NCBI GenBank assembly: GCA_048939625.1
Contig: JBHLPH010000013.1
Coordinates: forward strand, 1 to 61,414
DNA length: 61,414 nt
Reading direction: 5' to 3'
Source of the DNA: Promethearchaeota archaeon
GTDB lineage: Archaea > Asgardarchaeota > Hermodarchaeia > Hermodarchaeales > Hermodarchaeaceae
Below the pieces are notes generated by a model. The model searched no databases. It worked only from the letters and a program-made list of their open reading frames with translations, and was not told the origin of the DNA. Below are positions 3,110 through 15,174 of the stretch, piece by piece (position 1 is the stretch's first letter; the number at the start of each line of letters is the position of its first letter). Made by a program: the position numbers and the translations under genes.

Positions 3110-3132
3110 CCCCGGTTCAACATGAGGTTTGC

Positions 3133-3651
3133 TTATGAGACGTATTTCAGATAACGATACCAAGTAAAGGCACTGATAACAACAATAAGGCCCAACATCA
3201 CTACTGAACCGACAATGTTCACTGGTAGGTTAATCAAGGCTTCATAAATGGGAAACATGGGAGGACTCGTAGAATAATCCCAATACGCGAATAATATCGT
3301 ACGATTAAACCACATTAAGGAAAGCATCATATAAATTCCGAACATTGAAAACACAATCTTTTCGATGTTCTTGTTCGATGATTTTGGATGGGTGCAGGCG
3401 AAGACTACAAGGAGTGCCGTCCAGACTCCAATGAGAATTGTTCCAAAATTCATTGGGACATAGGAGTTCATAATATGGATGCTAAGGTATTGTTGATTTG
3501 ACTGCAAAGCCATTTGACGCGCAAGTTCAAGGACTATGGCTTCCCAGAGAAACATCAAAACCGCGCCTATAGCAACCAAGTAGAATCCAATTCGCCATGA
3601 TGATTTTTGGACAAGAACTTCTTGAGATACAATTGAACCAATCAACCTCAT
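3133..3651 (-). CDS. Four-TM membrane protein of unknown function
   Basis: Four hydrophobic segments; shares WRxGF and THPK motifs with its neighbour. Confidence 0.7.
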   Translation of the reverse strand: MRLIGSIVSQEVLVQKSSWRIGFYLVAIGAVLMFLWEAIVLELARQMALQSNQQYLSIHIMNSYVPMNFGTILIGVWTALLVVFACTHPKSSNKNIEKIVFSMFGIYMMLSLMWFNRTILFAYWDYSTSPPMFPIYEALINLPVNIVGSVVMLGLIVVISAFTWYRYLKYVS

Positions 3652-3681
3652 TCACCAAGCTTTCCTTGTGAATTCCAGCAT

Positions 3682-4179
3682 TTATTCTGTCTTTTCAGGC
3701 TTAAGCCACTTCACCCATATTAAAACGCTCAGAGCTGCAATGAAGAATCCAACGATTCCATAAATCATTAAGGCTGCCGCTAAACTGATGAAAACCGTTG
3801 GACTCGGTGGATATGGCCAAGTAACATCGTTGATTAAAAGAACTAGTTGTGCCCAACACATAGCGATAAATAACATAACCGTAAGACCTTGTGATAACCA
3901 TTGCCAATACTGAGTGCCATATTTAGGGTGTGTGCTGCCAAAAATTACAATCATGCTAAACCACGGACCAATAAGCATGGTAATTATCACAGTAAATATT
4001 ACTCCAAAGAATTGTACATTGACGCTAAACCACCAATTAGATAAAAGAAAAGCTTGAAGTGTCAATTCAAACAAAATGATTTGGCTTACAAACAGGCACA
4101 GGATGGCAAGTGTGAGAATTAGGAATCCAAACCGCCAAGCCTTTTTTAAACCAGAGTAGACCTCTGCAGTTTTTTCCAT
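3682..4179 (-). CDS. Four-TM membrane protein, paralogue of 3133-3651
   Basis: WRFGF and FGSTHPK motifs; same hydropathy pattern. Confidence 0.7.
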   Translation of the reverse strand: MEKTAEVYSGLKKAWRFGFLILTLAILCLFVSQIILFELTLQAFLLSNWWFSVNVQFFGVIFTVIITMLIGPWFSMIVIFGSTHPKYGTQYWQWLSQGLTVMLFIAMCWAQLVLLINDVTWPYPPSPTVFISLAAALMIYGIVGFFIAALSVLIWVKWLKPEKTE

Positions 4180-4295
4180 TCATCTTCCTCTCCAAAGAGT
4201 ATTGATCTAGTCATCCTAAAGGCATGATTCCAATTAACTCTTTGTATTACAAGGATTTAACAATTCAAAACAATGTGTGAAACTGTGAAACAATT

Positions 4296-4928
4296 ATGGA
4301 TAGCGGAGAAATTCACCCTAACAATGACCAACGATCAACGCTTCCAGTATATCCTGTATACATCTTTGAAAGAACCTGCAAAGAAATCTTCAGCTTCTGC
4401 CTGAAGGAAGCATCAGGGCCCTCACGAAGTGAAGCACTTGGAGTCATTCTTGGATTTCGACGTACTTGGAACGGAAAAAAATACATTCGCGTTACTGATT
4501 GGGCGACAGGTCATGTCGAAGCCAGTCTCGCACATGCTCGCTTCACACCTGAAGGTATTCTCGAATATCGCCTTGCACTCCATGATCGCTATGGAAATAA
4601 TCCTCATGCCCCTCGAGTCGTTGGGCTCTGGCATTCTCACCCTTTTGGAGGTGACCCCCATTTCTCCTCAACAGACCTAAACACCTTCTTCAACACTCCT
4701 TTCTGTGCAGAAGGAAACATCTTCTTCTTAATTGATCCAATTAGCCAAATCTTCAAAGTGTATATGCTTCGCTCCCGCCCTGAAGAACCTGGGCTTCAAC
4801 TTGACCAAGTCGAATGGTGTACTTATCGACCCTCTGTTCCCCTTGGTGAGGACCTTTCACGTGAAGACACTGATATGACGAATGAGGAGGAACCTTCCCA
4901 TGACAAAGAAGAAACCAACTCCGGTTGA
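4296..4928 (+). CDS. JAB1/MPN+ (JAMM) metallo-isopeptidase
   Basis: EALGVILG and WHSHPFGGDPHFSSTD give the full E...HxH...S..D JAMM motif. Confidence 0.9.
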   Translation: MDSGEIHPNNDQRSTLPVYPVYIFERTCKEIFSFCLKEASGPSRSEALGVILGFRRTWNGKKYIRVTDWATGHVEASLAHARFTPEGILEYRLALHDRYGNNPHAPRVVGLWHSHPFGGDPHFSSTDLNTFFNTPFCAEGNIFFLIDPISQIFKVYMLRSRPEEPGLQLDQVEWCTYRPSVPLGEDLSREDTDMTNEEEPSHDKEETNSG

Positions 4929-5766
4929 TCTCCAATTCTTCGAAAAAGACCAACATGATCGCACGCGTCGGTGGCTAGGTAAAACCAACCTGGAGAAAAT
5001 CCAGCAATCGAGCGTTCTCATGGTGGGGGCTGGTGCAGTAGGGAATGAAGTATGTAAGAATCTTGGACTTCTTGGAGTGGGGAAAATCATTGTAGTTGAC
5101 CCTGACAAGGTTGCTGCTTCAAATCTGAATCGTTGTGTCTTTTTTAGACCAAGTGACCACGATGTCACGTTTAAGGTCGATGCGATTGCTGAACGATTAC
5201 CCAATCTTGCAACAGACACAATTGTCGAACCACATCCTGTTCCTATTCAAGATGCTCCAGAATCCGTATGGAACGTGGATTTAGTGCTTGTTGGAGTCGA
5301 CAATCATTATACTCGGTATTTATTGAATGCAAAGAATCTTAGTTTAGCCCCACCTCTTCCTGTTATCAATGGGGCGATGGGAAAGGACTTCGTCTCTGTT
5401 GAGGTCTTAGCTCCACCTAACACAGCATGTTTAGTCTGTTCCTGGAGTAAAACTTTCGTTGACCATGTAGTAGCCAATGAAGTTCGAACTCGCTGCGATC
5501 CCTTCTTCGTAAGGACTATTCCTCAGTTTCCGATGATTAGTTTTATCACATCGATTGTTGGAGCGGTGATGTCATGGGAAGCTACCAAGGTACTCGTAGG
5601 ATTAGAGAACTGGAAGCAAACTGGAGAATGGCAAGATGAGTTCGAACCTGCTGTTGGCCGGTTTATTCAATATAATTTGCACCACCATAAGGTTCTGACG
5701 GGACCCATCTTGCCAAATCCGAGATGTGCTGAAATTTTCTGTAGAGACAAGCGGAAGCACGCCTAA
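4900..5766 (+). CDS. Ubiquitin-like activating enzyme E1 (ThiF/UBA fold)
   Basis: VGAGAVGNEVCKNL, DPDKVAASNLNR, VGVDN, Zn sites CLVC and C-terminal CAEIFC, candidate catalytic Cys in RTRCDP; overlaps the JAMM gene. Confidence 0.9.
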   Translation: MTKKKPTPVDLQFFEKDQHDRTRRWLGKTNLEKIQQSSVLMVGAGAVGNEVCKNLGLLGVGKIIVVDPDKVAASNLNRCVFFRPSDHDVTFKVDAIAERLPNLATDTIVEPHPVPIQDAPESVWNVDLVLVGVDNHYTRYLLNAKNLSLAPPLPVINGAMGKDFVSVEVLAPPNTACLVCSWSKTFVDHVVANEVRTRCDPFFVRTIPQFPMISFITSIVGAVMSWEATKVLVGLENWKQTGEWQDEFEPAVGRFIQYNLHHHKVLTGPILPNPRCAEIFCRDKRKHA

Positions 5767-5770
5767 CAGA

Positions 5771-7375
5771 CTAGATTAAGCCTATGGTTTTCTGCCAATA
5801 CGTGGAGGTTGGTTTATGATCCGCCCAGAGTCGAATATTCAACGTGACCTTAGGTGCTGCGGTGGGCATTTGGATGTTTAACTGTAGGTTTATCGGGGAT
5901 TGTAAACGGGGTGCAAACGGCTCTATAGCTACGACCTGATCCATTAAGCCATCAGAAATAGTGGCGGTCATTACCATCTGGTCTAACGGATGTTGCCGGC
6001 TTGTTATGGGAATCAATGCCACTTTTAAGGGAATTTTGTTACCTCGAGGTATAGCGTCAGGAATTTGAACTTGGATTTCAGCTGGCGCTGCCTGAAGCTT
6101 GGGGTGCACTGACTCAGGTACACTAACTACGCGTTTCACTTTCCATCCTGTTTGTATTTGTGGTTGAGACCGTCCACCTTTTTTTCCATCAATGCTAGAT
6201 GTTTGATAATGCCAACTTACTTTGAATTCTTGACGAATTCGTGGGTCCATCCAATTTCCAATGATTAGAGGTATATGACGGTTTGTAACTCCTAGTAGCC
6301 CCATGGCTCCATGCCATGTCGGATCAACTGGAATCCATTGCCCACGAATCCAAACCTGACTCCACGCATGGCGTTCCCAGGCTTTGCCATCGAAGGCGTA
6401 TCCTGCTTCGAGACGTGCGGGAATTTTATTTGCTCGACATAGTGCTGTGAACAATGCTGCATATTCTGTGCAGTCGCCCACGCGTTTCTCAATAGCGTAT
6501 GCTGCTCCTCTTTCATGTTCTTGGCGAACATACCGCATTTTATTTGTAACCTTTTTCATGGCTGCTTGGATGTATTGGATAGGTGTGACGTTTTCTTCAG
6601 CGATATCTCGGGCTAAATCTTTGATGAGGTGATGGTGCGATTCGATGAAGTTTTCAGGTTGAGTAAATTTCATTATATTTGCTGGAATCGAGGTTGAAGG
6701 GTTGGTTGTTGGTAGAACGTAACGAATTGCCCGATTTCGAACCAGGACTGTGTATCCACAGGTGAAGGTTTCTCCTGCGGATAACTTTTTACACAGAAAG
6801 CGGAACCAGCGATTGCCGATCAAATCATTTTGTTGGACTCCAGTTCGTGGCGAGAGCTTTACGTTTAGTATATCTTGGCGTGGAGGTAATGAAGGGGGCG
6901 AGGCGATATTGACTTGCATATTGTTAATTGGACTCTGCATCGTATTCGTGACCGTTGCAGAATAATTGACGCGATGAACGACGATGGGGGGATGTCCACC
7001 TTCTAATAAAAAACATCCCAATACAAAGTGGTCCTCTGGAGGTCCTTGATGCGGGTATTTATCCACAGCTAGCTTAATGCGCGTTTCTTGAAATGCTACA
7101 AGAATCGTGTAAAACCCTGAAAGGAGCATTTTGTCCAAAGGCAATGCAAATTTACCTATATTTGCTGGTCCAAATCGGAAAGGAATCTTACTGATTGTGC
7201 GACCAAAGGGATCGATGATGTATAAAGCTCCACTATCAATTTTGATATTAGAACCAGCTTTACTTTTCCGTGTGAGTTGGATGGAAATCTTTTGACCTGC
7301 TTTTACGCAGGGAATTCCGTCTCGACGTGTTTGTGCGCTGATTTTCAGAGCGACTGGGAGATTACTCGTCATCAT
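5771..7375 (-). CDS. Transglutaminase-like (Cys-His-Asp) protein with beta-rich flanking domains
   Basis: GDCTEYAALFTALCRA, HAWSQVW and WIPVDPTW; ATG at 7375/7372 overlaps the upstream stop. Confidence 0.85.
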   Translation of the reverse strand: MMTSNLPVALKISAQTRRDGIPCVKAGQKISIQLTRKSKAGSNIKIDSGALYIIDPFGRTISKIPFRFGPANIGKFALPLDKMLLSGFYTILVAFQETRIKLAVDKYPHQGPPEDHFVLGCFLLEGGHPPIVVHRVNYSATVTNTMQSPINNMQVNIASPPSLPPRQDILNVKLSPRTGVQQNDLIGNRWFRFLCKKLSAGETFTCGYTVLVRNRAIRYVLPTTNPSTSIPANIMKFTQPENFIESHHHLIKDLARDIAEENVTPIQYIQAAMKKVTNKMRYVRQEHERGAAYAIEKRVGDCTEYAALFTALCRANKIPARLEAGYAFDGKAWERHAWSQVWIRGQWIPVDPTWHGAMGLLGVTNRHIPLIIGNWMDPRIRQEFKVSWHYQTSSIDGKKGGRSQPQIQTGWKVKRVVSVPESVHPKLQAAPAEIQVQIPDAIPRGNKIPLKVALIPITSRQHPLDQMVMTATISDGLMDQVVAIEPFAPRLQSPINLQLNIQMPTAAPKVTLNIRLWADHKPTSTYWQKTIGLI

Positions 7376-7757
7376 TTGGGCCTGCTGAATCTGTATGAGG
7401 ACTGGATTCCGGTCCTTCTTCATCTGGCAGAATAACTACCTTTCCACTTGGTTGTGTTACACGTCTACGTGGAACGTCAGCAAGAATGGTCACACTGGAG
7501 CTTCTTTCTAGTTCTGTAACCTCTGAAGAGTCACGTGGTCCCAGAAATCGTGTAAAATGTGGGGAATGAGGTTCACTGCCTTGAATAATCGCGCCAGGGC
7601 AAGTGTTCTGACCGGTTTCAAGAAAAAGGGTTCGGCAGTTTGGACAAATATAACTGCCACAGGTTGTGCATATCCACCACTGGCTCCTTGCTTCAACAAG
7701 CGAAGTTTGAGTATCACAAACCATGCATTTGAAATGAGACGCTCCGTGGACACTCAA
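7362..7757 (-). CDS. RING-like Zn-finger protein with a disordered acidic tail (candidate E3)
   Basis: CMVC...CTTC-x4-CPNC-x11-CP...H; start overlaps the upstream stop. Confidence 0.7.
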   Translation of the reverse strand: MSVHGASHFKCMVCDTQTSLVEARSQWWICTTCGSYICPNCRTLFLETGQNTCPGAIIQGSEPHSPHFTRFLGPRDSSEVTELERSSSVTILADVPRRRVTQPSGKVVILPDEEGPESSPHTDSAGPNDDE

Positions 7758-7966
7758 TCTTCCTGTTCCTCCTGGTTAGCAGGTTTTTGAATTCGATGTA
7801 CCTTAATAGAAAAATGTGGAGAATAATTCGGTGGGCGTTCTTCCTCAAAGGGAATTTCCCTCTCTTGTAAGATTATAATGCGATTCTTCTTCGGCTGGTC
7901 TATTGCGGATTGGTCTTCATTATCAGATTCCTGCTTTTCTTCCTTCTCAGGGGGAGTATCCGACAT
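7754..7966 (-). CDS. Small acidic, probably disordered protein in the Ubl operon
   Basis: Fills the gap between the E2 stop (7969) and the Zn-finger start with 2-bp spacing and a 4-bp overlap; shares SPHF and V/I-x-I-L motifs with its neighbours. Confidence 0.65.
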   Translation of the reverse strand: MSDTPPEKEEKQESDNEDQSAIDQPKKNRIIILQEREIPFEEERPPNYSPHFSIKVHRIQKPANQEEQED

Positions 7967-7968
7967 AA

Positions 7969-8742
7969 CTAGTTCTCCTTCGAATCCTCTGCCTCATCAA
8001 GAATCCGAACACTTGAGACCTTCTCTGATGCATCCAGAACCTTGGGTGATCTTACAGTGGGTTTCTGTTGTTTTTGCTGAGGACCAAGAATCTGGACGCG
8101 TCCTCGTCGAGGAGTTGCTGGTGATCCCAATTGATGTCGGGTCTCCCAGAGGCGATCAAGAGTTTCTACAATATTGTTCGTGTTCTGCTCATACCATGCC
8201 ATTGCTGTGCTGTTAAGCCCATGGTCGGATTGAAACTGAGATGGCGGTTCCACACGATCCGGTTTCAGTAAAACAAAGAAGGGGAGATCTTCTAAAATCC
8301 GGTCGAGTTCACCACGAACCGAATAACACGCATGACCAGTCCCACTGGCTGCTAATCGGGGATGAAAAAGCGGTGTCTCAGCGGCAGGGCGAATGGTTCC
8401 GATATTTTGAGGATATTCACGGGGTAAATCAAAAACAAACCGATGTTCATATCTGATGGCAGTTTCATCTGTCAAAGAACGGGGTTGCCGAATTATCCCT
8501 GGGAGGTTCCGTATAACGAACCGAATTCGCTTGTATGCCCCGTCTCGATACCTAGCGATGATTGCCACAGAAAAATCACGATTGCTCCACATGGTGTTCT
8601 CACGTATGGGAGGGTCTGGATTCCAACCCCTACGACCATACAAATTATTCATTGTATCAAAGAATGTTTGGATTTGGGTTTCCACACGGGCGTTGAAGAG
8701 TTCTGTTGAGAAGACTGGTCGGGTCATGGTTGGATCCCTCAT
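7969..8742 (-). CDS. Ubiquitin-conjugating enzyme E2 (UBC fold)
   Basis: FVFDLPREYP, TPLFHPRL, GHAC (catalytic Cys) and LNSTAMAWY follow the UBC pattern; alternative start at 8727. Confidence 0.8.
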   Translation of the reverse strand: MRDPTMTRPVFSTELFNARVETQIQTFFDTMNNLYGRRGWNPDPPIRENTMWSNRDFSVAIIARYRDGAYKRIRFVIRNLPGIIRQPRSLTDETAIRYEHRFVFDLPREYPQNIGTIRPAAETPLFHPRLAASGTGHACYSVRGELDRILEDLPFFVLLKPDRVEPPSQFQSDHGLNSTAMAWYEQNTNNIVETLDRLWETRHQLGSPATPRRGRVQILGPQQKQQKPTVRSPKVLDASEKVSSVRILDEAEDSKEN

Positions 8743-8771: not shown

Positions 8772-9092
8772 TTATTTTCCCACTTCTGGAACAACATCAA
8801 GGAGGAAGAATTCATCGTCGGTAATCTTAGGCTCAAGTTCTCCAAAGGTTACTCCTGGACTTAGGCGAGTTGGTTCAGGAGCTTTGCGAATTAGGACGAA
8901 TTCTGCTCGTTGATCACCGATTTTCGCCTTCGCCCAATCGTCGATGCTCACTCCCTCATCACGGGCTTGTTGGACCAAAGTGCGGATAACCTCTTCAACT
9001 CTAGTATCCTCGTCAATGCCAATTCGAAATTCCTTTTGGCGGGGTTCAACGTCGACGATGATTGAGCGCCAAAAACCTTCTTCGTTACTCAT
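8772..9092 (-). CDS. Ubiquitin-like (beta-grasp) modifier precursor ending VG-K
   Basis: Ubl-like pattern IGIDEDTRVEEVIRTL, FVLIRK, LSPGVTFGEL, ITDDEFFLLDVVPEVGK; AGGTGA SD; first gene of the E2 operon. Confidence 0.7.
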   Translation of the reverse strand: MSNEEGFWRSIIVDVEPRQKEFRIGIDEDTRVEEVIRTLVQQARDEGVSIDDWAKAKIGDQRAEFVLIRKAPEPTRLSPGVTFGELEPKITDDEFFLLDVVPEVGK

Positions 9093-9334: not shown

Positions 9335-12232
9335 ATGAACACTAGACATGAGACACCACTTTCTACCTCACAAGTCGTATTCCGTAGCATCCATCTAGTG
9401 AATTTTGTAATTCATCGTGATACTACAATTAAATTTGATACCGCTCCTGTTGTGCTAATCACTGGATCAAATGGAAGCGGAAAAACTCTCATTCTAGATG
9501 CACTCCTCCTTGCCATAGGTATTGAATCCCGTCGAGCTCAACGTCAGCGTAACTCTGCCTTCATTGGGCGCTTTGGTAAATATGCTGAAGTAGAATTATT
9601 ACTGAATAATTTTCAACTTAATGGACGCCGTGTTCTGAGGAGTCCTGATCCGGCACTCGCAAAGGTTCTGGACACTGATGAAGTGTCGATTCGTCTCCGA
9701 ATGCATGACACGAATCGCATTTCTTATTGGGTAAATGGGAAGCGATCAGTTAATGGACACCAGATTGCCCGAAAAGATATTCGAAAACTCTTCCAAGCTG
9801 CTGGTGTCTTTGGTGATTCACCCTTAGCAGTCACCGAAGCCGAAACACTCGACCATTTTGCATCTCAATCTCCGCGAAGAAAATTCGAAACTCTGTTGAA
9901 TGAAACCGGACTTAGGAATTGGATGGAAAAACTTGAAGAAGCCCGACTGCTTGTATTGCAAGCAAAAGCGAACGTCAAGCCACTCGAATACAGAATCCGC
10001 CACGAAGAACAACGACTTCAAGTATTGAAAGCCGCTTATGAAGCTTTTCAACAAAAGCAGCAACTTCTACAGCGACTAAAAGAGCTTGATATTGAAGCAG
10101 CATGGGCTGAGGTTGCCTATCGTGAAACGCTTGCAAATCAACTCCAATCACAAATCTCTGTACTTGACCATCAACTTGAAACTGAAAATGTAAAATTAGC
10201 AAAATTAGATCAACGTAAAGCCGATCTAGCTGACAAGTTGACAGCGATTGAAAAGAAACGTGAAAAACTTCATTCGAGAATGGATTCACTTCGCGATGCG
10301 CAAATGCAAGCTCAGGGTCACCGACAGGGATTGGAAAACGAACTTAAGGCCTTGCAGTTTCGGACCAAACGTTATTCGAAACGGCAAAAGCCTCCTAAGA
10401 CTAAGATTGAGACGCTTCAAAACGAATTAACGGCATTTGTCACTGATCGAGATAGTCTCGATGATGACCTTGCCCAAATCCGACAAGATATCGCATCTAC
10501 AGAAGAAGTTCTCTTTACTCAACCTCAACGTTATCCACACTTTGAGGAAACCGTTCTTCGCGCTTGCATTCGATACCGCTCCGAATTGGATAAGTTGGCT
10601 CTCTCCGATTCAGTGATTGGCCCATTATTCACGCTTATCCGAATGAAACCTGAATATTCCCAATATGAAACCGCAGTAAAGTTAGCATTAGGTCGGTACA
10701 CATACGCCTTTATCGCCTTGAATAGAGATGTCTTCGTTGAAGCAAAGAACCTCTACGACCGGTTATGGCTTCACGAAAGACCAGATCTTGTCGTTGCTCG
10801 TACGAATCCTACAACTGCGATAACGAAAGATCGACCCGCTGTCTCCTCACCAGTGATTGGCTGGGCCGCTGACCTAATCGAAGGGGATGTTTACGCCATC
10901 AGCTTTCTTAGCCGAGTTGTAAACACTGCCATCGCTGAAGAAGGGGCTGATCCCAACATTCTTGTGGATGCTTCTCAACAACTCAATGGGAACATTATCA
11001 CAAGCGAGGGCTCAAGTCATTATCTTCGCATTGGGGCTTTTGCACGACCTCCACGCCCTGTAACAGTCAACTTAGATGTCACACTCCCTGAACTGGGATT
11101 GGTCCAAGATTCTGCTGATGTCCGTCGCCAACTCCGAGAATTCCGGGAACGAGAAGCGAAGTTGATGCGAGATCGTATGCGGCTCAACTCAGAAATTAGT
11201 CAGCTGCGATCCACACTTCAAGACTTGCAACAAGATTCTGCTGGACCTCTCTCTGCTGAAGAAAAAAATGCGATCATTTTGGATTCTCAGCAGCGCGAAT
11301 CGGAACTTCATCAACAAATGCTAGAACTTGATACTCAATGTGATGCCTTAAGTCAAGAATATCAAGATTGCAATTCGGATTTATCCCCCCTGAATTCCCA
11401 ATTGCAAAAAATTACCAGTCAAATCCAAAGCGTGGAATCTCGACGCTCAAACCGTCAAACAATAATCACGCAGATTTCAATCGAACTTCACCAACGAGAA
11501 GATGAAAACGAACATCTTACGACTCAATTGAAAGAATTTCGAAAAGCTGCCAAATTGCTAGGGGAACGGCCTGAAGTCGTGCGAGAACCCACTCCAGTTC
11601 GTGAAGAGCAAATCCAGATTCAAGCCATGATTGAAACTATCACAGCTACATCTGAAGATCGACAAGTCTTTGAAGAACAAGAAAAAGTCGTTTCGCAGTT
11701 ACAGGAATACCTCAAACAACGTCAGCAACACTTAGAAAATCTCATGACGGACGTGGATCGCCGGCTTCTCGAATGGCGGCGCCAACTCGAAGAAATGGTC
11801 GAAACGCTTAATCATCGGATGAACCAGTTACTTAGTCATTTTCTCAAACAAGTCAAATTGCTTGTTCGTTTTCCTGATGAACCAAGTCGCGCAGAACTGC
11901 ATCTCCAATTAGCCATTAATCGTAAAGGAGATTGGCGTACTTATCAGGAAATGTCGGGAGGTGAGAGGGTCCTAGCGACTCAGACTTTCATTTTAGCACT
12001 TCACACCTTGGTTAAGAGTCCCCTACATGTGATTGATGAGTTTACTCAACGACTTGATGAAGCTAGCCGAGCAGCGATTCTCGGTGTGGTTCAGCGTACC
12101 TTAGATTTGACTCAACAAGACGCCTTGATTCATCCTCAATTTCTTCTTATGGCTCCCTCCACTGTTGGCTTACAAATTCCAGAGACAATGCATCACGTGG
12201 TTCTAATTAAAGGACAGGTGAAAACCAAATGA
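9335..12232 (+). CDS. SMC5/6-like structural maintenance of chromosomes ATPase
   Basis: Walker A GSNGSGKT, two coiled-coil arms, hinge VIGPLFTLI...ALGRYTYAFI, signature MSGGERV, Walker B VIDEFTQRLD, Pro at the H-loop position (QFLLMAP). Confidence 0.88.
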   Translation: MNTRHETPLSTSQVVFRSIHLVNFVIHRDTTIKFDTAPVVLITGSNGSGKTLILDALLLAIGIESRRAQRQRNSAFIGRFGKYAEVELLLNNFQLNGRRVLRSPDPALAKVLDTDEVSIRLRMHDTNRISYWVNGKRSVNGHQIARKDIRKLFQAAGVFGDSPLAVTEAETLDHFASQSPRRKFETLLNETGLRNWMEKLEEARLLVLQAKANVKPLEYRIRHEEQRLQVLKAAYEAFQQKQQLLQRLKELDIEAAWAEVAYRETLANQLQSQISVLDHQLETENVKLAKLDQRKADLADKLTAIEKKREKLHSRMDSLRDAQMQAQGHRQGLENELKALQFRTKRYSKRQKPPKTKIETLQNELTAFVTDRDSLDDDLAQIRQDIASTEEVLFTQPQRYPHFEETVLRACIRYRSELDKLALSDSVIGPLFTLIRMKPEYSQYETAVKLALGRYTYAFIALNRDVFVEAKNLYDRLWLHERPDLVVARTNPTTAITKDRPAVSSPVIGWAADLIEGDVYAISFLSRVVNTAIAEEGADPNILVDASQQLNGNIITSEGSSHYLRIGAFARPPRPVTVNLDVTLPELGLVQDSADVRRQLREFREREAKLMRDRMRLNSEISQLRSTLQDLQQDSAGPLSAEEKNAIILDSQQRESELHQQMLELDTQCDALSQEYQDCNSDLSPLNSQLQKITSQIQSVESRRSNRQTIITQISIELHQREDENEHLTTQLKEFRKAAKLLGERPEVVREPTPVREEQIQIQAMIETITATSEDRQVFEEQEKVVSQLQEYLKQRQQHLENLMTDVDRRLLEWRRQLEEMVETLNHRMNQLLSHFLKQVKLLVRFPDEPSRAELHLQLAINRKGDWRTYQEMSGGERVLATQTFILALHTLVKSPLHVIDEFTQRLDEASRAAILGVVQRTLDLTQQDALIHPQFLLMAPSTVGLQIPETMHHVVLIKGQVKTK

Positions 12233-13020
12233 TTACTAATGACACTTCCGCATTCCTTCGAGCGTTTCCACGCCGCAAAGCTTGGTTTGACACCTTCCAG
12301 CATAATTACAAACATAACCGTATTACACGTTATGGAATGAAGAGCGTTGTAATCACTCTCTGGAATCTAACAAAGAAATATGAAGTAGCCCTTAAACAGC
12401 ATGATGTTGTACCAGTGAAAGAAGCGGAGATTGACCGTGAAGAAGTCGCCGATGCATTTCGTGTTCTTGATACGCCTTGGGAAAGAAACCTCGATGGCCG
12501 CTTTTACCACACACTGGCCAAAATGCAGCACAACCGCGACTCACAATTAGCTGCACCTGAAATTGCACCTGAAGAATGGATTTCTCAATTTGCTACAGAG
12601 GTGAAAAGGCGAGCCACGCCTCTTCTGTTCCTAGTTAACCAAGACCGGACCATCCCCCCCTTCGATTTACCTCCAGGGGATACCCCAGTCACCATGGATG
12701 AGGCTCCCTCTACTGAAGATCGCCAAGCTATGCAAAAGCATCGGATATTCTATGATGAGATAACAATCAAAACGCTTGATGCACGTCGAGCTTCAATTCT
12801 GAAACGGCTTAAAGGAAAACGGTACAGCTATACTGCATTAGCAGAGATACTAACCAATTGGGAGTTAGATTTACTAAGTCAAATGGTCCGTGATAACATA
12901 CTTCCTGCCACATTTGAAAAAACAGCAATCATATTTCGGAATCCCCCATCACAATCCAATCCGGTTTTGACTGCGGTAGCTATTGCTGCGAAAAAGCATG
13001 AGGAGGTTCGATCGCAATGA
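12229..13020 (+). CDS. Putative kleisin (Nse4/ScpA-like)
   Basis: ATGA overlaps with both SMC and KITE genes; helical N-terminus, Pro/acidic linker, and C-terminal winged-helix-like segment ILKRLKGKRYSYTAL...LLSQMVRDNI...AIIF. The family call rests mainly on position and layout. Confidence 0.55.
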   Translation: MITNDTSAFLRAFPRRKAWFDTFQHNYKHNRITRYGMKSVVITLWNLTKKYEVALKQHDVVPVKEAEIDREEVADAFRVLDTPWERNLDGRFYHTLAKMQHNRDSQLAAPEIAPEEWISQFATEVKRRATPLLFLVNQDRTIPPFDLPPGDTPVTMDEAPSTEDRQAMQKHRIFYDEITIKTLDARRASILKRLKGKRYSYTALAEILTNWELDLLSQMVRDNILPATFEKTAIIFRNPPSQSNPVLTAVAIAAKKHEEVRSQ

Positions 13021-13664
13021 CCTCGAACCCCACCTCATCGCACCCAGGACCCTCATCTGGTGAACAAACCGAGGAAGAAGAATACGAACAACGCCATCTT
13101 TTAGGGCAACTCTTTGCTGCCCTTACTGCTCGCTTTCGCAATGAGGAAGGACAACTCAGCATTGGAGTGAAGCGACAGGATTTACTTGAAGCTCTTCATG
13201 TCAATAAGGTCGGACTAAGCCGTTTACTTGATTTACTTCGACAACAGATCGCTCCATTGGGACTGGAATTAGTAGAATACCGATTAAATCGAGATACACT
13301 CTATTGTGTCCGAACCCTATATGGTGTTCCAGGAGAACTCACCGATCCTGAATATGCTGTCCTTGGAGTCATCATTTCAACAGTAGAAAGAGCCAGCAAG
13401 AATCGTAGACCCCGACGAGTAGCTACAAAAGAAATTGAAACCATTCTCGTTGCTCGAGGTCGCCTTTCACGATATCAACTAGATAAAATCATGCGGCGTC
13501 TCATTGAACTCGGTTATCTTACACGTACAACGAAACGGATTGCATATGGTCCACGATTAGAACTCGAATTTGATTCTGAACGACGTGAAGCCATCGCTAA
13601 TGCTGCAACCCTATATCTTGCAGGAGCCATCACAGACAAGGAGGAAGAATCGAATGAAACTTGA
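13017..13664 (+). CDS. KITE subunit (Nse1/Nse3-MAGE/ScpB-type tandem winged helix)
   Basis: IAPLGLELVE (WH1), and IMRRLIELGYL...YGPRLELEF (WH2, GPR..E motif of Nse1/Nse3). Confidence 0.75.
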   Translation: MTSNPTSSHPGPSSGEQTEEEEYEQRHLLGQLFAALTARFRNEEGQLSIGVKRQDLLEALHVNKVGLSRLLDLLRQQIAPLGLELVEYRLNRDTLYCVRTLYGVPGELTDPEYAVLGVIISTVERASKNRRPRRVATKEIETILVARGRLSRYQLDKIMRRLIELGYLTRTTKRIAYGPRLELEFDSERREAIANAATLYLAGAITDKEEESNET

Positions 13665-14115
13665 CCTCTCAACTGTTGGCATCAGTTGTGTAGCCTGTGG
13701 CTCCCGAAGCACACTGGAACAGGCAATCCACGATGGTTGGCACCAATGCCTTCGATGCCAGTTCTTTATTGATCCTCAATGCCTACAAATTGTCAAAAAT
13801 ACCATGGGTGGTGTTTGTCCATCATTCAGCCAGGGTGTCTCTAGACACCTTATCCAAGAGGCTGATATTCCCTCGGAACAAATCCTCATTTTTGTGAAAG
13901 ACCAATACCAAAAGGGTCGCGTAGGGACCATCGTCGACTCGCTCTTCTACACCAAACCTTCCTATCTCGAAAAACCGCGACACGAAAATCCACAACAATC
14001 TGACGCCGAAGAAGCTTTGACCCGTGAAGAAATCTGGCAACGGTATGGACTTGTCTTGGTACAACGGGCACAAGGTAAATGGAAAACTTGGGAAAAAGTG
14101 GGGAGCACAGGATAA
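13654..14115 (+). CDS. RING-like Zn-finger protein, last gene of the SMC operon
   Basis: CVAC...CLRC-x4-DPQC-x11-CP...H; ATG at 13654 after GAGGA, overlapping the KITE stop. Confidence 0.7.
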   Translation: MKLDLSTVGISCVACGSRSTLEQAIHDGWHQCLRCQFFIDPQCLQIVKNTMGGVCPSFSQGVSRHLIQEADIPSEQILIFVKDQYQKGRVGTIVDSLFYTKPSYLEKPRHENPQQSDAEEALTREEIWQRYGLVLVQRAQGKWKTWEKVGSTG

Positions 14116-14116
14116 T

Positions 14117-15103
14117 TCAGATTAACAGTTCTTCCCCTAACTCCAATTTTGCTAGAATTTTATCCACCAATTCACGGGCTAATTGTTTAGTATTTTTAGA
14201 TTCTGTAACAGGTTCATCCTCGATATCCGCAATGAGTTGAGGTAAGCCAGCAAGTTTTCGTATGATACCCGAAATTGCGTGCTTCGCTACTGATACTTCC
14301 GAGCCTCCCGATAAGAGAACAACCAAGTGTCCGGAACACACTTCTTCCGCGGCTTGAAGTAAGATGTCGGTCATCGCTGGAAACGCCCGAAGGGAGAGGT
14401 TAAACCCACCATAATCCAAAGCGTGAGCGTCATGTCCCATATTCCATAGAATCATATTTGGTTGGATTCGACGGGCCCAAGGAATCACCAATCGTCGCAT
14501 CGCTTCAACAAAAGTTTCATCGCTACTATTACTGGGAAAGGGAACATCCACATGGCGCAGGGTTACGGTATCAAAGCTTTCGCGAAAACTAGCTTCGAAA
14601 TTCAGGTGGTATACTCCTTCGTCGTCACCAAGTGTATCCCGTGTGCCATCTCCGGGATGGGGATCAGTATCCACAATGAAAAATCGTTTGACTCCATACT
14701 TCTGTTGGAGCTGTCGAACAAGTAACGCTGAATTATTGTAATAACAAAAGCCCCAGAATGAGTCCCGACTCGCATGATGACCAGCACACCCAGTAAAGGC
14801 AAAGGCGTTCGCCGCCTCTCCGCGCCAAACAGCTTCTCCCGCTCTCACTGCAGCTCCCCCCGAAACTAGGGACGCAGGGTCGTAACCTGATCCTTTCACG
14901 CGTTTGATATGATTTGGTGTATGAACCGATAATAATAGCTCCTCTTTTACTTCAGAGGCTTGTTCTACTTTAACTGAAGAAGACGATAAGGTGCCTGTCT
15001 GCTCAAGGTAATCGAAAGCTGGTTGCACTCGACCAGCCAGAACCGGGTATCCTTCAACCGCCATCAAAGGATGATAAATTACCAGAGTTGGCTTCTTTTT
15101 CAT
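14117..15103 (-). CDS. Histone deacetylase superfamily (Zn-dependent) protein
   Basis: GHHA...GFCYYNN, DTDPHPGDGT and GHDAH motifs; SGGS in place of EGGY. Confidence 0.88.
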   Translation of the reverse strand: MKKKPTLVIYHPLMAVEGYPVLAGRVQPAFDYLEQTGTLSSSSVKVEQASEVKEELLLSVHTPNHIKRVKGSGYDPASLVSGGAAVRAGEAVWRGEAANAFAFTGCAGHHASRDSFWGFCYYNNSALLVRQLQQKYGVKRFFIVDTDPHPGDGTRDTLGDDEGVYHLNFEASFRESFDTVTLRHVDVPFPSNSSDETFVEAMRRLVIPWARRIQPNMILWNMGHDAHALDYGGFNLSLRAFPAMTDILLQAAEEVCSGHLVVLLSGGSEVSVAKHAISGIIRKLAGLPQLIADIEDEPVTESKNTKQLARELVDKILAKLELGEELLI

Positions 15104-15174
15104 CACAGGTCACATCCAAATACAAGGCAACAAAGGATTTAACAGGATATGATGTTCTACTCAACAGCTTCAGG

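Follow-up and report, generated by a model that had tools for sequence, protein, structure and literature searches.

A 61,414-nucleotide stretch of DNA, the window (contig JBHLPH010000013.1, positions 1 to 61,414, forward strand; assembly GCA_048939625.1, Promethearchaeota archaeon, family Hermodarchaeaceae), carries on its minus strand a small gene (positions 8772 to 9092; ATG start, 106 codons, TAA stop) for an acidic ubiquitin-like protein (Ubl) with a predicted beta-grasp fold. The window also encodes an E2-like protein (7969 to 8742, minus strand), a compact ThiF-type E1 (4882 to 5766, plus strand) and a JAMM/JAB metallopeptidase (4296 to 4928, plus strand). From their conserved residues and predicted structures, we consider it probable that the Ubl open reading frame (ORF) is the pro-form of a conjugatable modifier that works through its own E1/E2/JAMM cascade. 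An earlier note, made from the letters of the window, had described an acidic 106-aa protein with the tail VVPEVG-K and no di-Gly, and the ORF agrees with that description: it ends in ...DVVPEVGK followed by TAA, di-Gly is absent, and the protein has an isoelectric point (pI) of 4.52, with 24 Asp and Glu versus 15 Lys and Arg, and no Cys. The neighboring E1, E2 and transglutaminase-like proteins are basic (pI 8.4 to 9.9), in contrast to the acidic Ubl. Within the pro-form end Val104-Gly105-Lys106 (window positions 8775 to 8780 for the last two codons, minus strand), Gly105 (8778 to 8780) is the proposed mature C terminus and Lys106 (8775 to 8777) the proposed removable cap.

A word-indexed search returned 19 close homologs of the Ubl, all labeled hypothetical protein and all from metagenome-assembled genomes (MAGs) of Hermod-, Odin- and Promethearchaeota. 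An exhaustive HMMER search of 1.8 billion proteins gave 25 cluster representatives, and within the phylum, 31 of the 400 genomes searched had a single-copy match. Because of these three sets of matches, the Ubl is not a chance ORF. In named genome records, its close relatives fall in Candidatus Hermodarchaeota, and a search for related loci with alignment A1 yielded solely close loci of Hermodarchaeota type. No Ubl member matched any Pfam family above threshold, and the Pfam models for Ufm1, ubiquitin, Rad60-SLD/SUMO and ThiS/MoaD matched none of 30 members. Subthreshold matches to Pfam YukD (PF08817) were obtained for 10 of the 30 (best E value, 0.0086), and the window Ubl scored 14.9 bits against this model, below its gathering cutoff of 27 bits. 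NCBIfam held nothing for the Ubl, and no PADLOC model matched the Ubl, the E2, the zinc-ribbon protein or the transglutaminase-like protein. As far as these matches go, the Ubl is a previously unannotated sequence family that appears restricted to Asgard archaea.

Conservation of the terminal Gly, on which the earlier note had built its proposal, was borne out by alignments of 42 relatives: Val104 does not vary, and the next residue is Gly in 38 of them and Ala in the other 4. Sequence constraint stops abruptly beyond position 105. Right at that position the Ubl ends in 13 of the 42 proteins, whereas 15 Ubls carry a one-residue tail (K, Q, E, R, D, G, F, L, S or I), tails of two to four residues occur in 7 and a tail of nine residues in one, and several have long extensions. 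Even within one genus the tail varies by species (Q, K, F, L, I, FSS, QKQ, VLP or none), and in one of the four archaeal families that bear the system (f1, f2, f11 and f12), namely f12, the Ubl ends exactly at Val-Gly. In proteins P0029 and P0036, a Ubl with the sequence ...V-G-G runs directly into a full-length homolog of the E2 encoded downstream; P0030, which is truncated, starts in the same manner. A conserved small residue followed by freely varying sequence, natural fusions included, is the signature of a processed pro-Ubl, and release of the domain from the Ubl-E2 fusions requires an endopeptidase cut at the V-G site. A Ubl ending in V-G-G and fused to an E2-like protein was also seen at positions 2940 to 3845 of L002, a 4.4-kb contig from Logan (SRR22808069); the next gene on it encodes a Rep_1 domain of rolling-circle replication (6.7e-7, below the Pfam cutoff), and this fusion may be carried by a plasmid or virus.

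The AlphaFold2 (AF2) model of the Ubl, computed with a 30-sequence alignment (A3), had a mean predicted local distance difference test (pLDDT) score of 86.1 and a predicted template modeling (pTM) score of 0.76. It consists of strands at residues 9 to 15 and 20 to 26, a helix at 32 to 45, an extra helix at 50 to 58, and strands at 63 to 69, 75 to 77 and 94 to 102. The insert EGVSIDDWAKAKIG (residues 46 to 59; window positions 8916 to 8957, minus strand), placed by alignment and model between the main helix and strand 3, forms the second, short helix and carries W53 (nearly invariant) and G59 (invariant), which are among the best-conserved residues of the family. Foldseek against the PDB matched the model to the EccD5 Ubl (5e-5), SUMO1 (1.2e-4), ubiquitin variants, ISG15 and NEDD8, and also to 2gbr, a "35-36 MoaD insertion" mutant of ubiquitin whose insert occupies the same topological place. 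VIA-align, which is independent of Foldseek, gave Z scores of 10.6 for EccD (88 residues; root-mean-square deviation, 2.5; extra helix covered), 10.0 for the parkin Ubl, 9.4 to 9.5 for SUMO and 8.8 for bacterial BilA (8tyz_B, from an E1-E2-Ubl complex). Searching the ESM Atlas by shape again returned YukD/EccD-type and ubiquitin-type domains; searching it by features returned generic beta-grasp domains only (kindlin F0, PI3K p85B and RA; scores of ≤0.90). UFM1 was not among the best 50 matches listed in either fold search with the Ubl, which is not evidence of a different fold. The Ubl thus has, as modeled, a beta-grasp fold with a helical insert; the earlier note had claimed both, and the model helix (50 to 58) lies exactly at the position that it gave for the insert.

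The ORF that follows the Ubl gene (257 aa, or 252 aa from the second Met) appears to encode a divergent E2 of the UBC fold. It matched no Pfam or NCBIfam model, and phmmer against PDB sequences found nothing significant. Its alignment shows an invariant PR-x-YP (PREYP in the window) and HPR, and about 10 residues further an invariant Cys139, which is the sole Cys of the ORF. The model has pLDDT scores above 85 over most of residues 10 to 200 and is disordered from about residue 204. Foldseek matched it to Ube2G1, UBC9, Rad6 and Ube2S (E values of about 1e-4), and VIA-align gave Z scores of 8.8 to 8.9 for UbcH10/Ube2K, 6.0 to 6.8 for UFC1 and 5.3 for BubB. The E2 was found in 32 of the 400 genomes versus 31 for the Ubl; the same four families account for both, and the genes always lie side by side (f1: Ubl in 17 of 18 genomes and E2 in 18 of 18; f2, 1 of 1; f11, 2 of 2; f12, 10 of 12). 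The disordered tail of the E2 (window positions 7969 to 8130; alignment A4, columns ~225 to 275) contains two [RK]-[VI]-x-[IV]-L motifs with acidic or polar residues after them, and these motifs (RVQIL and VRILDE) persist in relatives of only 30 to 35% identity. They may be a noncovalent Ubl-binding element like a SUMO-interacting motif (SIM).

The earlier note had counted on a compact E1 of roughly 290 aa, and the gene encodes a 294-aa protein with a single ThiF domain (ThiF family, 1.4e-34) that appears complete in its adenylation residues (GAGAxGNE, D73, NLNR84C, K98 and D140) and has a zinc site (C183xxC186 and C282x4C287) and an invariant loop Cys, the candidate catalytic Cys205. Across 11 orthologs, the most distant of which has 42% identity, the glycine-rich loop, D73, N81, R84, K98 and D140 are invariant, as are the CxxC and Cx4C of the zinc site and Cys205, which lies 19 residues past the CxxC in the crossover loop. 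Among proteins of known structure, it is most similar to the active adenylation domains of UBA6 and UBA1 (1e-20 to 4e-16), followed by UBA7, UBA3, UBA5 (2.4e-11) and ThiF; the match to SAE2 reached 4e-7, against 1e-20 for UBA6. Models of ThiF, MoeB and SAMP-E1 proteins were also matched, below threshold. The JAMM gene always abuts the E1 gene, and its 210-aa product matches Prok-JAB (1e-5) with invariant E46, H113-S-H115, S124 and D127; phmmer with it against PDB sequences found nothing significant. Taken together, motifs, models and gene order mark the E1, E2 and JAMM proteins as likely conserved partners of the Ubl.

Two further genes recur with the system in all four families. One (5771 to 7423, minus strand) encodes a 550-aa transglutaminase-like protein (Transglut_core, 3.4e-23) with Cys, His and Asp visible in its sequence, and the other (7362 to 7757, minus strand) encodes a 131-aa Cys-rich zinc-ribbon/RING-like protein, a candidate E3 or adaptor. 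Structural maintenance of chromosomes (SMC) genes lie on the other side of the Ubl gene: positions 9335 to 14115 (plus strand) contain an SMC-family ATPase (9335 to 12232), a 263-aa ORF, a 215-aa winged-helix (kite-like) ORF and a 181-aa zinc-finger ORF (13570 to 14115). PDB matches of the SMC gene were SMC heads, Smc6 and Smc5, and its match to NCBIfam SMC_prok_A (5e-37) was below the cutoff; by these similarities it is a genuine SMC-family member. The 215-aa protein gave weak leads only, to winged-helix, MAGE and MksE-type kite proteins. No SMC paralogs were detected in the same genome at E values of ≤1e-8, a result of little weight, since the MAG is 88% complete.

Gene order across genomes ties the two sets together. 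Genomes of f1 have the arrangement of the window. In f12, the SMC, 263-aa, 215-aa, 181-aa zinc-finger, JAMM, E1, Ubl, E2 and 70-aa genes follow each other on one strand. In f2 (genome G001), the SMC, 263-aa, 215-aa, 181-aa, JAMM and E1 genes form one tight same-strand block, with Ubl, E2 and transglutaminase-like genes on another contig. In two other families (L070, 7419 to 13411, on contig C20 of G001; L026, 1286 to 9477), the SMC, 263-aa, 215-aa and 181-aa genes stand immediately ahead of JAMM-E1 on its strand, and neighboring genes overlap or are separated by small gaps. The JAMM and E1 of the Ubl system thus appear, by this gene order, to belong to an SMC-complex operon with SMC, kleisin-like, kite-like and zinc-finger genes. 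Distant metagenomic relatives are minimal, with E1-Ubl-E2 or Ubl-E1 only; they have no JAMM or SMC gene within 10 kb, and their Ubls end in V-G or V-A. Two genes upstream of one such distant Ubl(V-A)-E1 pair, a 2,675-aa protein with an STT3 oligosaccharyltransferase domain is encoded on a 37.8-kb metagenomic contig (L052, 873 to 8900).

The same genome carries a canonical ubiquitin operon on contig C45 of G000 (L050, ~3130 to 6852), and its ORFs lie at L050 positions 270 to 521, 535 to 771, 971 to 1432 and 1429 to 2472. The operon encodes an 83-aa RING-H2 protein, a 78-aa ubiquitin (PF00240, 4e-11) ending in ...TEGG without a tail, an E2 with HPN...C (UQ_con, 4e-34) and an E1 of 347 aa that has a ubiquitin-like domain at its C terminus. 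Comparison by hhalign of the window Ubl and E2 profiles with the genome's own ubiquitin and E2 gave a probability of ~2%, which is not significant, although PRxxP, HP[RN] and the Cys of the two E2s were in register. Another ThiF-family gene lies on contig C9. The cell therefore seems, from its gene content, to have two separate E1-E2 cascades, one for canonical ubiquitin with a Gly-Gly end and one for the Val-Gly Ubl.

From fold, conserved residues and genomic linkage, all established computationally, we infer the following chemistry. An endopeptidase, for which the JAMM enzyme of the operon is the likeliest candidate, would cut after Gly105, with loss of Lys106. The compact E1 of the ThiF type, which probably forms a homodimer whose chains each have one adenylation domain, would adenylate Gly105 with ATP and be loaded with the Ubl on Cys205 in the crossover loop. 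The Ubl would then pass to Cys139, the sole Cys of the divergent HPR-motif E2, and be ligated to target lysines with the aid of the zinc-ribbon/RING-like proteins. Reversal would be due to the JAMM enzyme, a transglutaminase-like Cys protease or both. The targets would most likely be the SMC complex or its chromatin surroundings, because JAMM-E1 is cotranscribed with the SMC, kleisin-like and kite-like set. The whole system would operate beside the canonical ubiquitin system and apart from it. Removal of a tail by a JAMM enzyme has precedents: in E. aridi, BilC trims BilA at the Gly97-Ala98 bond and so takes off just the last residue, and in the Ubls of Bil systems the one conserved Gly has up to nine residues behind it (PMC10557695); archaeal (Caldiarchaeum) Rpn11 is reported to process pro-ubiquitin (PMC6043591).

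Several points weigh against this mechanism. Family f12 keeps its JAMM gene although its Ubl ends at Val-Gly, so tail removal is not the only or the conserved role of the JAMM enzyme, which, from this gene content, is more likely deconjugation. Two distant E1-Ubl(-E2) loci combine the lack of a nearby JAMM gene with a tail-free Ubl; with f12, they indicate that maturation does not always depend on JAMM. As a candidate protease, the transglutaminase-like protein is conserved to the same degree, and with both enzymes present in all four families, the pattern of tails versus enzymes discriminates neither. The assignment of the Ubl and E2 depends on predicted structures and motifs, as their profiles have no significant similarity to the ubiquitin and E2 of the same genome. 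Adenylation, thioester formation, conjugation and cleavage are all inferred for this family, and the identity of the targets is read from gene order only. A complex prediction for the JAMM protein (residues 18 to 185) and the Ubl, both supplied as alignments, scored 0.00, which is not evidence either way.

The closest mechanistic precedent is BilABCD (Ubl BilA, E2 BilB, JAMM BilC and E1 BilD; PMC10557695), which consists of the same four kinds of gene and whose Ubl has one conserved Gly near its C terminus, with a short tail of variable sequence behind it. Since BilA already has a single Gly and a one-residue cap, the chemistry of such an end is not new. The earlier note's candidate for a distinct beta-grasp modifier with a single conserved C-terminal Gly stands, but the label "non-canonical" was too strong. 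The two systems also differ: BilD is large, with inactive and active adenylation domains and a mobile CYS domain, whereas the E1 here has 294 aa, one adenylation domain and a loop Cys; no sequence similarity of the Ubl or E2 is detectable, and the host is an archaeon; and the system here has an SMC operon and a transglutaminase-like gene among its linked neighbors and appears to be vertically inherited, unlike a defense island. The ubiquitin operon of Caldiarchaeum and Asgard archaea is likewise an archaeal E1-E2-(RING-like)-JAMM cascade in which an Rpn11-like JAMM enzyme is reported to mature the pro-modifier (PMC5654768, PMC6043591), but its modifier is a true ubiquitin (PF00240) with a Gly-Gly end and its E2 a UQ_con protein with HPN, and the window Ubl and E2 match neither Pfam family.

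Among eukaryotic systems, SUMO/Ubc9/Smc5/6-Nse2 resembles the window system in that SUMO1 is one of the best fold matches of the Ubl and UBC9 recurs among those of the E2, the modifier is acidic, SIM-like hydrophobic motifs and acidic residues occur in partner tails, and there is a genomic coupling to an SMC-kleisin-kite set. Unlike SUMO, however, the Ubl has no Gly-Gly and no Rad60-SLD/SUMO (PF11976) match, and the E1 is not closest to SAE2; no SP-RING was identified in the Ubl system. Atg8 and UFM1 have a single-Gly end with a short cap. The UFM1/UBA5/UFC1 system appears to share with the window system a Val-Gly mature end after removal of a short tail and a compact single-domain E1 with a zinc site and loop Cys, but not the sequence family; moreover, the E2 here is nearer to canonical E2s, and the neighboring peptidase is a JAMM enzyme instead of a UFSP-type Cys protease. 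YukD and the EccD N-terminal domain provide the best structural match of the Ubl, extra helix included, and weak Pfam matches. Such YukD-type domains belong to type VII secretion and are not known to be conjugated or to have a conserved terminal Gly.

The processing enzyme need not be JAMM. In an alternative that we regard as unlikely, the modifier is the same, but it is the transglutaminase-like Cys-His-Asp protein that trims its tail and severs the Ubl-E2 fusions, as a Ubl protease of the papain kind and in parallel to Atg4, UFSP and ULP of eukaryotes, leaving JAMM only as a deconjugase or as an enzyme for another substrate of the SMC module. The Transglut_core match and the visible Cys, His and Asp suit this role, as does the position of the gene, which follows Ubl-E2 in f1, f2 and f11 and lies 7 to 42 kb away on the same contig in f12; JAMM-E1, by comparison, can occupy a locus different from that of Ubl, E2 and the transglutaminase-like gene (G001), and JAMM is kept in f12, where the Ubls need no maturation. 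Yet f12 retains the transglutaminase-like gene without tails too, so that the phyletic pattern favors neither enzyme; the peptidase activity of this protein is putative; and in the characterized prokaryotic Ubl-E1-E2 systems cited here the maturase is a JAMM enzyme, namely BilC (PMC10557695) and, as reported, Caldiarchaeum Rpn11 (PMC6043591). Function rather than enzymology is at issue if a Bil-like Ubl module and a Wadjet/Lamassu-like SMC module form a mobile antivirus or antiplasmid defense that tags invader proteins and not host chromatin. Matches of the SMC-family protein to the PADLOC models LmuB (2.4e-25), mad3 and JetC, and of the E1 and JAMM proteins to the PADLOC models for CBASS-type E1-E2 and JAB proteins, point that way, as do the replication gene next to the fused Ubl-E2 relative on the 4.4-kb contig and the fact that Bil is itself a defense system. 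We nevertheless think a defense role quite unlikely: the genes are single copy and nearly universal within the bearing families (Ubl, 17 of 18 in f1 and 10 of 12 in f12; E2, 18 of 18 in f1), their order is conserved and their divergence tracks taxonomy, unlike patchy defense islands, the SMC protein also matches genuine SMC heads and Smc5/Smc6, and PADLOC matched neither the Ubl nor the E2.

It is improbable that the Ubl is never conjugated, being either a ubiquitin-fold adaptor like YukD and the EccD N-terminal domain or a sulfur carrier of the MoaD/ThiS/SAMP/Urm1 type that E1 only adenylates. EccD/YukD are among the best structural matches, with the subthreshold YukD hits in 10 of 30 members, the E1 has subthreshold likeness to ThiF/MoeB/SAMP-E1, and one distant locus is Ubl-E1 only, with E2 undetected. 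Against these stand the strictly conserved V-[G/A] end with its freely varying tail, which is not a YukD feature, and a UBC-fold E2 with an invariant Cys that co-occurs with the Ubl and is sometimes fused to it. The cluster lacks a rhodanese domain and cofactor-biosynthesis genes, the ThiF-family gene on contig C9 is available for such roles, and the Ubl ends in Val-Gly instead of Gly-Gly and has no ThiS/MoaD Pfam match. Orthology to eukaryotic UFM1 is still more improbable. The Val-Gly mature end and the E1 match to UBA5 (2.4e-11) recall UFM1, and the CxxC...Cx4C zinc site and the loop Cys ~20 residues past CxxC are arranged as, we presume, they are in UBA5. Ufm1 homologs have been reported from nine Asgard clades (PMC12962969, 2026). 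However, Pfam Ufm1 (PF03671) was matched neither by the window Ubl (E value of ≤0.1) nor by 30 family members or the whole genome (E value of ≤1), which upholds the earlier note in confining the resemblance to the tail. The E1 is closer to UBA6, UBA1 and UBA3 than to UBA5, the E2 keeps HPx and scores higher with canonical E2s (Z, 8 to 8.9) than with UFC1 (6.0 to 6.8), the peptidase is a JAMM enzyme, and the Ubl occurs in 4 of >30 families of the phylum rather than nine clades. Without a Ufm1 profile match, with a canonical-like E2 and with only four families, the Ubl is probably not the reported Asgard Ufm1.

The conjugatable Val-Gly modifier that we favor would add to what is known in four respects: judged by sequence, the Ubl and E2 are an unannotated family found in just a few Asgard lineages; an E1 that is compact and has a single domain is paired with a predicted UBC-fold E2; there are natural Ubl-E2 fusions; and the Ubl system is linked at the operon level to an SMC-kleisin-kite set. 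No known organisms are more closely related to eukaryotes than Asgard archaea, whose ubiquitin machinery has been used to reconstruct the origin of the eukaryotic Ubl repertoire. Parallel Ubl pathways (ubiquitin, SUMO, NEDD8 and UFM1) are otherwise a hallmark of eukaryotes, whereas some Asgard lineages (Hermodarchaeota and three further families) would have two separate E1-E2 cascades. The SMC operon supplies a concrete candidate for the target and bears on when Smc5/6 acquired its Ubl-ligase activities. Operons of SMC5/6-related archaeal paralogs have been described; that report does not mention Ubl genes and places the origin of the Nse1 RING in eukaryotes (bioRxiv 10.1101/2024.01.07.573240). 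Only tentatively do we suggest that the Val-Gly Ubl is a dedicated modifier of an Asgard SMC5/6-related complex, and a prokaryotic forerunner of the coupling of Smc5/6 to Ubl ligation (Nse2 SUMO ligase and Nse1 RING). If so, this coupling would predate eukaryotes and not be the eukaryotic innovation currently proposed (bioRxiv 10.1101/2024.01.07.573240).

Among the remaining genes of the cluster, a 70-aa acidic protein (7754 to 7966, minus strand) is kept after the E2 in f1 and f12. The 131-aa zinc-ribbon protein and the 181-aa zinc-finger protein of the SMC set are paralogs, and tblastn with the former matched orthologs of the latter in L032 (9.5e-5) and L070 (1.6e-12). A 329-aa ORF (14117 to 15106, minus strand) stays beside the cluster in two other f1 genomes (79% identity in L031 and 65% in L032).

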